The notes under the pieces are model-generated. The model saw nothing but the letters and a program-made list of their open reading frames with translations. It made no database searches and had not been told where the DNA came from. From NCBI GenBank assembly GCA_964016885.1, contig OZ024754.1, forward strand, positions 8,122,001-8,186,000: a stretch of 64,000 bases of DNA. The letters run 5' to 3'. Both the position numbers and the translations under genes were made by a program. This DNA comes from Eledone cirrhosa. Taxonomy: Eukaryota. Shown piece after piece: positions 45,447 to 46,004 of the stretch. The number at the start of each line of letters is the position of its first letter. Within the stretch, counting starts at the first letter, position 1.

Positions 45447-45854
45447 TAAAATATTAAAAAAATAATGAATAAAACAATGAAACAGTTCCTTATATTAAAC
45501 AAAAAAAGTTCATTATTTAACGATCGTTTCTAGGACATATATGTGTTAGAATTGGCATGCATATTCAACAGATCTATGTACAAAATTATACAAAATTATA
45601 CAAACTATCAAATTTAATATACATACCAACACGTATATATGCCGTCTTCTGAAGACGGCATATATACGTGTTGGTATGTATATTTAAATTTGATAGTTTG
45701 TATAATTTTGTATAATTTTGTACGTAGATCTGTTGAATATGCATGCCAATTCTAACACATATATGTCCTAGAAACGATCGTTAAATAATGAACTTTTTTT
45801 GTTTAATATAAGGAACTGTTTCATTGTTTTATTCATTATTTTTTTAATATTTTA
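45447..45854. repeat. About 408-bp palindrome centred on TCTTC-T-GAAGA
   Basis: Centre at 45650; arms nearly identical. Confidence 0.93.
45649..45790 (+). ncRNA. Hammerhead motif with long stem II, lacking the 5' strand of stem I
   Basis: CTGAAGA cggcatatat..ttggtatgtatatt ... aatatgcatgccaa..atatatgtcc GAAA cgatcg TT. Confidence 0.55.
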
Positions 45855-45867
45855 TATATATATATAT

Positions 45868-46004
45868 ATATTTATTAAAATAACAGATTAAAGTTTAAGC
45901 AAAGAATCGCTGCTTTCACCCTTAACGGGATCTTCTGAAGATCCCGTTAAGGGTGAAAGCAGCGATTCTTTGCTTAAACTTTAATCCGTTATTTTAATAA
46001 ATAT
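45868..46004. repeat. 137-bp palindrome centred on TCTTC-T-GAAGA with hammerhead-like core
   Basis: Centre at 45936; right arm CTGAAGA tccc-gttaa-gggt GAAA. Confidence 0.88.

Follow-up and report, generated by a model that had tools for sequence, protein, structure and literature searches.

Paired palindromes centred on a hammerhead core in Eledone cirrhosa, probably minimal head-to-head insertions of Hydra-type Penelope-like elements

EN+ Penelope-like elements (PLEs) are known to insert with an inverted, 5'-truncated pLTR, a tail on one side only and palindromes at the junction, and opposed ribozyme motifs 100-700 bp apart have already been described for PLEs, in the available parts of PMC8557442 and PMC3846280. 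How these inverted ends are built is listed as a task still open in the portion of PMC8557442 that deals with it. The Hydra clade, which includes Hydra-1_Obim, is characterized in section 11 and the supplement of the same paper by the motifs DKT, RWR, and CxCX5C, a C-terminal YIG with CxxC and CxH, TA targets, and a size "generally" below 3 kb. The Hydra motifs published in that supplement are type I hammerheads with an extra base on each side of stem II and often a U at the cleavage position. For green anole Poseidon, the sections of PMC11167929 drawn on here report that in vitro both target strands are cut and extended, that two internal start sites bound the tail, and that ribozyme mutants still insert.

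Here we set against these systems two palindromes that lie side by side in one window, that is, the whole analysed stretch of 64,000 nt on contig 14 (OZ024754.1) of the 3.0-Gb E. cirrhosa genome. The initial annotation had reported a palindrome of ~408 bp centred on position 45650 and another of 137 bp centred on 45936. Both are present: the arms of the first mismatch by one substitution and one one-base gap, those of the second by one substitution, and both axes read TCTTC-T-GAAGA, the common 11-nt centre that had been pointed out. The extents given for the palindromes hold, but they miss a tail on one side of each. The features, in window coordinates, are as follows:

Palindrome 1: centre 45650, arms 45446-45649 and 45651-45855, ~204 nt each.
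~45311-45445, - strand: family 1 tail (~135 nt), a one-sided extension of the left arm with a TA run at its end, which recurs in copies of the family.
45446-45649, - strand: tailed family 1 arm, a putative Hydra-type pLTR end, 5'-truncated inside the hammerhead core.
45645-45655, no strand: palindrome 1 junction, TCTTC-T-GAAGA; native family 1 has the micro-palindrome TTC-T-GAA here.
45651-45855, + strand: untailed family 1 arm, with core 45649-45655, a 115-nt stem II, GAAA at 45771, a palindromic stem III, U at the predicted cleavage position 45782, and the orphaned stem I 3' strand 45783-45791.
45853-45871, no strand: TA run common to both insertions, a preferred Hydra target in the relevant part of PMC8557442.
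Palindrome 2: centre 45936, arms 45868-45935 and 45937-46004, 68 nt each.
45868-45935, - strand: untailed family 2 arm, with the native core CAGAAGA on the - strand.
45931-45941, no strand: palindrome 2 junction; native family 2 has TTC-A-GAA here.
45937-46004, + strand: tailed family 2 arm, with a short stem II, GAAA at 45955, stem III, U at the predicted cleavage position 45975, and the orphaned stem I 3' strand 45976-45980.
46005-46084, + strand: family 2 tail (~80 nt), which in full-length copies continues into the ORF leader.

Both right arms read CTGAAGA, stem II, and GAAA, as first annotated. In palindrome 2, however, the CTGAAGA of the + strand contains the complement of the native A, and thus its canonical core was created at the junction. 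Both palindromes lack the 5' strand of stem I, as had been noticed, and the non-palindromic relatives with a complete stem I that had been called for do exist, copies of this kind in both families retaining that strand. Within the window, these two centres are the sole matches of TCNTC-W-GANGA at a palindrome axis, and the 11-mer TCTTC-T-GAAGA has no occurrence in 600 kb of even-step samples from three other contigs. The 3-bp micro-palindrome TTC-W-GAA natively spans the core in families 1 and 2.

Elsewhere in the window, a small hammerhead-like motif (45063-45095, + strand; core, 7-nt stem II, and GAAA) stands 550 nt before palindrome 1. A palindrome with 179-nt arms (14944-15303) carries outward-facing hammerhead cores ~80 nt off its axis and is probably the head-to-head stub of another Penelope-like family. 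Short hairpin elements at 46472-46582, 46659-46781, and 32501-32625 have an axis without a core, and the hairpin type of 46659-46781 provides 5 of the 27 palindromes in a 600-kb sample.

The two families are abundant, with 6842 (family 1) and 33,092 (family 2) exact genome-wide matches of the respective arm 24-mer. Long copies contain an upstream ORF, of 712 aa in family 2 (L216:2837-4975) and of 719 aa, partial, in family 1 (L177:5714-7870). Since these proteins share 48% and 45% identity in two blocks, the families are homologous, and the arms, which had been called unrelated, are so only as DNA. As read by eye, the single ORF comprises an RT and then, at the C-terminus, an endonuclease of the GIY-YIG type with CxxC and CxH beside conserved E and N. 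DKT (in place of DKG), GLYRDD, and the CxCX5C linker are present in both proteins, and neither CxC nor CCHH was seen by eye in those of L216 and L177. At the place of the RWK motif by which the clade is recognised, the family 2 protein has RWR; the family 1 sequence is partial and starts downstream of the N-terminus. Both families insert into (TA)n, and when target-site duplication was examined both insertion ends were found in TA runs. At 3.26 kb (family 2) and >5.8 kb (family 1), the units exceed the usual <3 kb of Hydra. A Pfam search with the family 2 protein gave no match; searching at the DNA level with the distal arm of family 1 was likewise empty, which is uninformative. By their eye-read motifs and TA targets, families 1 and 2 would be Hydra-type PLEs, and the origin in Penelope-like reverse transcription proposed at first is upheld. 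An assignment to Naiad was ruled out by the C-terminal position of the endonuclease, and a long ORF near the family 1 arm in L161 turned out to be part of another element.

Family 3 is a further Hydra family, encountered in the flanks, its ORF being 51% identical to that of family 2, and family 4 is linked to another PLE type and often found in tandem arrays. On contig 1, family 4 cores form retrozyme-like tandem arrays of 420-500 bp, some of them head to head. The family 1 protein (L177:5714-7870) carries, between the RT and the linker, a ~100-aa insert with much N, K, and T, which recalls the N-rich inserts described in the available text of PMC3846280, and ~3.7 kb of microsatellite-rich sequence separate the end of its ORF from the ribozyme. 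Decayed ORF pieces resembling the family 2 Hydra protein lie at 3263-4200 of the window.

Rfam at gathering scores has no match in the window. The native family 1 copy L043 nevertheless folds as a type I three-way junction, in which stem II is 115 nt long and stem III palindromic (z -4.64, matched by 0 of 200 shuffles), and core position 4 is U in all 38 family 1 copies examined. In family 2 this position is A in all 133 native-context copies examined, and the motif folds no better than shuffles (z 0.33), with stems that can be drawn by eye. The motifs resemble the published Hydra ones in the extra base on each side of stem II and in the U at the cleavage position; family 1 differs by its 115-nt stem II and family 2 by the A at core position 4. 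The change U4C lowers hammerhead activity yet works in vivo according to the part of PMC3088659 consulted, in which an A at this position was not found. A family of some 33,000 arms (33,092 anchors) has therefore spread with a non-canonical ribozyme core and pairable stems kept.

Near-core pairs, defined as head-to-head arms whose core halves lie at most 30 nt apart, amount to 981 in family 1, 1708 in family 2, and 3317 in family 3, with patterns that differ slightly in length between families 1 and 2. With thousands of such pairs, the palindrome-making process is indeed recurrent, as had been anticipated. An inverted, 5'-truncated pLTR at the 5' end is present in these pairs. To locate the starts of the arms, we used 100 exact anchors per family among the contig 1 matches listed, chosen blind to the junction, of which 97 (family 1) and 100 (family 2) arms were scorable and 84 and 85 core-bearing. 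In family 1, 41 arms extend at least 23 nt past the core, 13 have no core, and 43 start at -13 to +1, with 15 of the 84 core-bearing arms starting exactly at -7. In family 2, 53 arms run on, 15 have no core, and 26 start at -8 to +2, with 9 of 85 exactly at -5; six further arms at -11 to -13 resemble T-run variants and were left out of the truncation count. Among the junctions listed, no arm goes beyond -8 in families 1 and 2 (50 each), and 49 of 50 lie within -7 in family 3, whose edge was taken from the listed junctions and the rows used for the extra G. The junctions therefore scatter over ~10 nt, and upstream of the core they break off sharply on the 5' side. The peak falls on one A, at -7, -5, and -6 from core C3 in families 1, 2, and 3, respectively; ribozyme stem I begins at this A or at the adjoining base. 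The Hydra-like family F6 shows no pile-up at stem I (17 arms). A fixed C/T site that seemed to distinguish short from tailed family 2 arms was an artefact of the bias of the initial query.

Ribozyme cleavage was considered as the origin of this edge and rejected because the predicted cut, ~40 nt (family 2) or ~130 nt (family 1) downstream, has been left intact in the two arms, and because 5-7 nt are too short for the stem I of a type III hammerhead.

We propose, with a probability of about 0.7, that the palindromes are minimal head-to-head insertions of Hydra-type PLEs, which arise by run-off at a likely capped RNA start and joining through microhomology. The two cut ends of a TA target would each prime one cDNA on the element RNA, one beginning at the end of the arm and the other at the end of the tail. 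These two proposed cDNA starts match the two start sites seen in vitro for anole Poseidon, a different element. Both cDNAs would run off the capped 5' end of the RNA, the start A being the transcription start and the extra G described below the reverse-transcribed cap, and their 3' ends would be joined bluntly or via microhomologies of 2-3 nt. Joining through TTC/GAA would produce the 11-nt centre common to both palindromes, and the ribozyme would matter only through its position at the start of the RNA. Long, ORF-bearing copies would come from another template without an end at the start A.

The capped start is inferred from the pile-up of arm starts, an extra G, and an initiator-like context. 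The base before the start A was counted by hand in 100 rows per family among the matches listed, obtained with patterns that exclude the native base at this place. In family 2 (3381 matches), 23 rows are native and 77 truncated, and the added base is G in 54 of the 77, A in 14, and C in 9; in 10 of the 54 G rows the assignment is ambiguous, as the G could derive from the partner arm. In family 3 (2120 matches), 7 rows are native and 93 truncated, with G in 74 of the latter. In family 1 (1557 matches) all rows are truncated, with G in 33 of 100, A in 47, and T in 20, a weak excess of G amid AT-rich joins. Two control positions in family 2 gave 812 and 194 matches, mostly point mutants, and G in 9 of the 40 truncated rows listed, against 54 of 77 at -5 (Fisher p 1.5e-6). 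In families 1, 2, and 3, the start A is preceded by two pyrimidines, which together with the A form what we take to be an initiator pattern. Family 3 additionally has TATAAATA 30 nt upstream of the start A, that is, TATA at -30; no TATA box was found at -30 in families 1 and 2.

In the available part of PMC4038843, an extra G at complete 5' ends is attributed to cap copying by the L1 and AMV enzymes, and the relevant sections of PMC8557442 and PMC2377424 place the transcription start of Penelope and Chlamys-3 inside the pLTR, with an initiator there too. The start A is thus likely to be a capped transcription start and the G a copied cap; the addition of a C wherever an RNA physically ends would mimic the cap. 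In 37 of 55 family 2 rows, counted by hand, a T precedes the extra G. Such a T would be expected if the cDNA received, behind the C, an A without a template, which would explain the second commonest junction of family 2. A literature search, with subscription papers outside its scope, returned no paper tying PLE junctions to a capped start at stem I, a cap signature, or twin priming, and the available parts of PMC13000458 and of a 2026 retrozyme preprint have nothing on the junction.

The distribution of tails bears on whether one cDNA or two are involved. With identical pairs merged, 29 of 29 pairs in family 1 and 17 of 19 in family 2 have exactly one tail, and so do 30 of 30 core-centred loci. 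In six loci (L083, L161, L162, L197, L204, and L219), an untailed arm is joined to a partner that consists of tail only; such a partner has no homologue in the other arm, so neither arm was copied from the other. The simple fold-back of one strand that was originally suggested gives neither the strict pairing of one tailed with one untailed arm nor tail-only partners. Some junctions of families 2 and 3 carry the extra G on both arms. From these observations we infer two target-primed cDNAs joined at their 3' ends, and the extra G points to a sense template.

An alternative would be a snap-back, in which one cDNA runs off the RNA 5' end and copies itself from a hairpin of 2-3 bp, the second arm being later cut at the border of arm and tail. 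The second commonest family 2 junction (10 of 50 among the junctions listed) would correspond to such a hairpin, with 3 bp and a loop of 3 nt, if C and A were added to the end of the cDNA, and self-priming has been proposed for junction palindromes of this kind, on an antisense template, in the part of PMC3846280 that discusses them. Moreover, arms within a family 1 pair share variants, with a mean of 0.5 substitutions within and 3.0 between pairs; this fits a snap-back but is equally expected from two cDNAs on one RNA template. In family 2, the arms of a pair are no closer than those of different pairs (2.9 vs 2.7), with no sharing of variants. Since the tail-only partners, the extra G on both arms, and the strict one-tail pairing all speak against self-copying, and the extra G in particular against an antisense template, we regard the snap-back as unlikely.

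It is very unlikely that the boundary is instead a 3' splice site, the extra G-A-G closing an exon that lies upstream. The start A of families 2 and 3 does double as the A of an AG behind a pyrimidine tract, exactly at the boundary, and the intron end of D. virilis Penelope maps to the 5' end of helix I in the available text of PMC4209133. However, family 1 has the same edge without an AG, no constant exon precedes the G in the rows listed, and no GAG/GT donor lies within 1.2 kb upstream in three of three native family 2 copies.

The initial annotation had placed the fold-back or template switch at a fixed point, the hammerhead core itself, a reading that we consider highly improbable and already largely refuted. 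It is true that exact core-centred palindromes number 553 in family 2 and 23 in family 1 genome-wide, that the core-centred junction is the commonest single one of family 2 (15 of 50 among the junctions listed), and that in 3 of the 27 palindromes detected in an even-step sample of 60 stretches, each of 10 kb, a core lies no more than 20 nt from the axis. However, the core-centred share of near-core pairs is ~2% (23/981) in family 1 and 32% (553/1708) in family 2, and among the 50 junctions listed per family, none is core-centred in family 1 and 2 (4%) are in family 3. Family 4, with 25,687 exact canonical cores, yields 30 near-core pairs and none that is core-centred, and arm starts do not pile up at the core in families 4, 5, and 6 (47, 26, and 17 arms). 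In addition, family 2, the richest in core-centred junctions, is the one with the non-canonical core, and none of the 27 sampled palindromes has the 11-nt centre. The juxtaposition of two core-centred palindromes in this window is largely a coincidence within a common TA target.

It is hardly credible, too, that a small number of master hairpins gave rise to the palindromes, each propagating as a unit in the manner of miniature inverted-repeat elements. The identical centre in hundreds of copies would agree with this, but of the 15 loci in each of families 1 and 2, 10 have A and 5 have T at the centre as read on the tailed arm, from which it follows that junctions arise many times; core-centred family 1 copies belong to different subfamily variants, and there are dozens of junction types. 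Finally, even though long perfect palindromes are a known class of artefact, an assembly or amplification fold-back can practically be dismissed, given that substitutions distinguish the arms, whose ends in TA runs are defined and asymmetric, that the junctions track element anatomy across thousands of loci, and that contigs from public runs span the family 2 centre (X19 record 5 and X21 record 21, possibly from the sample that was assembled), and that a family 1 start-site junction is present in a run (X23) of another study.

Target-primed copying of a capped RNA from both ends does not extend to the gene-bearing copies. We sampled 44 of the 756 family 2 copies that span from the tail to the ORF leader, among the matches listed, 31 of them core-bearing. 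None of these 31 starts at -5, and all reach at least 24 nt further upstream, a shortfall with a p of about 2e-4, computed with 25 instead of 26 of 85; eight comparable family 1 places behave alike, none ending at the start A. A single capped mRNA from the start A therefore does not account for the long copies, which seem to come from another template, either a read-through tandem RNA or a circle. A circular template is proposed in the part of PMC4209133 concerned with this question; the non-canonical core of family 2, as it reads, would weaken the case for a ribozyme-made circle in that family. Five of the 31 long copies (L324, L329, L339, L341, and L348; also L318) share a LINE piece upstream of -43, possibly a 5' transduction from one source copy, which suggests that this source was transcribed from its flank.

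A tentative extension, which we hold to be possible but doubtful, is that Hydra-type Penelope elements draw on two RNA pools. A capped linear transcript, beginning at the first base of ribozyme stem I, would be copied at both target ends, yielding dead-end palindromic stubs, and gene-bearing copies would arise only from an endless template, be it a circle or a read-through tandem RNA. If so, the stub junctions would be a genome-written map of PLE start sites that records the cap, and twin priming on the sense strand would be favoured over antisense self-priming.

The ~6000 near-start junctions of three families speak, at the level of single bases, for a capped sense template that is copied from the two target ends, and they allow exact predictions to be made for CAGE as well as for the in vitro assay already in use. 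Hydra-type PLEs appear from these data as a steady source of genomic palindromes, and the idea of a fold-back at the ribozyme core can be abandoned. In L1 twin priming, two target ends prime on one RNA, which leads to an inversion joined by microhomology, and the two cDNAs cover different parts of that RNA. Unlike in L1, here both cDNAs would cover the same part of the RNA, and hence a palindrome results. The extra G at complete 5' ends is a feature common to L1, as treated in the available part of PMC4038843, and the elements studied here. Poseidon belongs to a different clade, and the inverted junction, the RNA 5' end, and cap copying are not treated in the sections of PMC11167929 at hand. 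As in the insertions of EN+ PLEs, the arms are head to head, one arm bears the tail, the junctions are palindromic, and the targets are microsatellites; in contrast to the 30-40 nt of those elements, the tails here measure ~80 and ~135 nt. Contrary to the antisense self-priming set out in the relevant part of PMC3846280, the junction here maps to a single base and carries an extra G, an indication that the template was capped and sense. The architecture of these insertions is thus already known.
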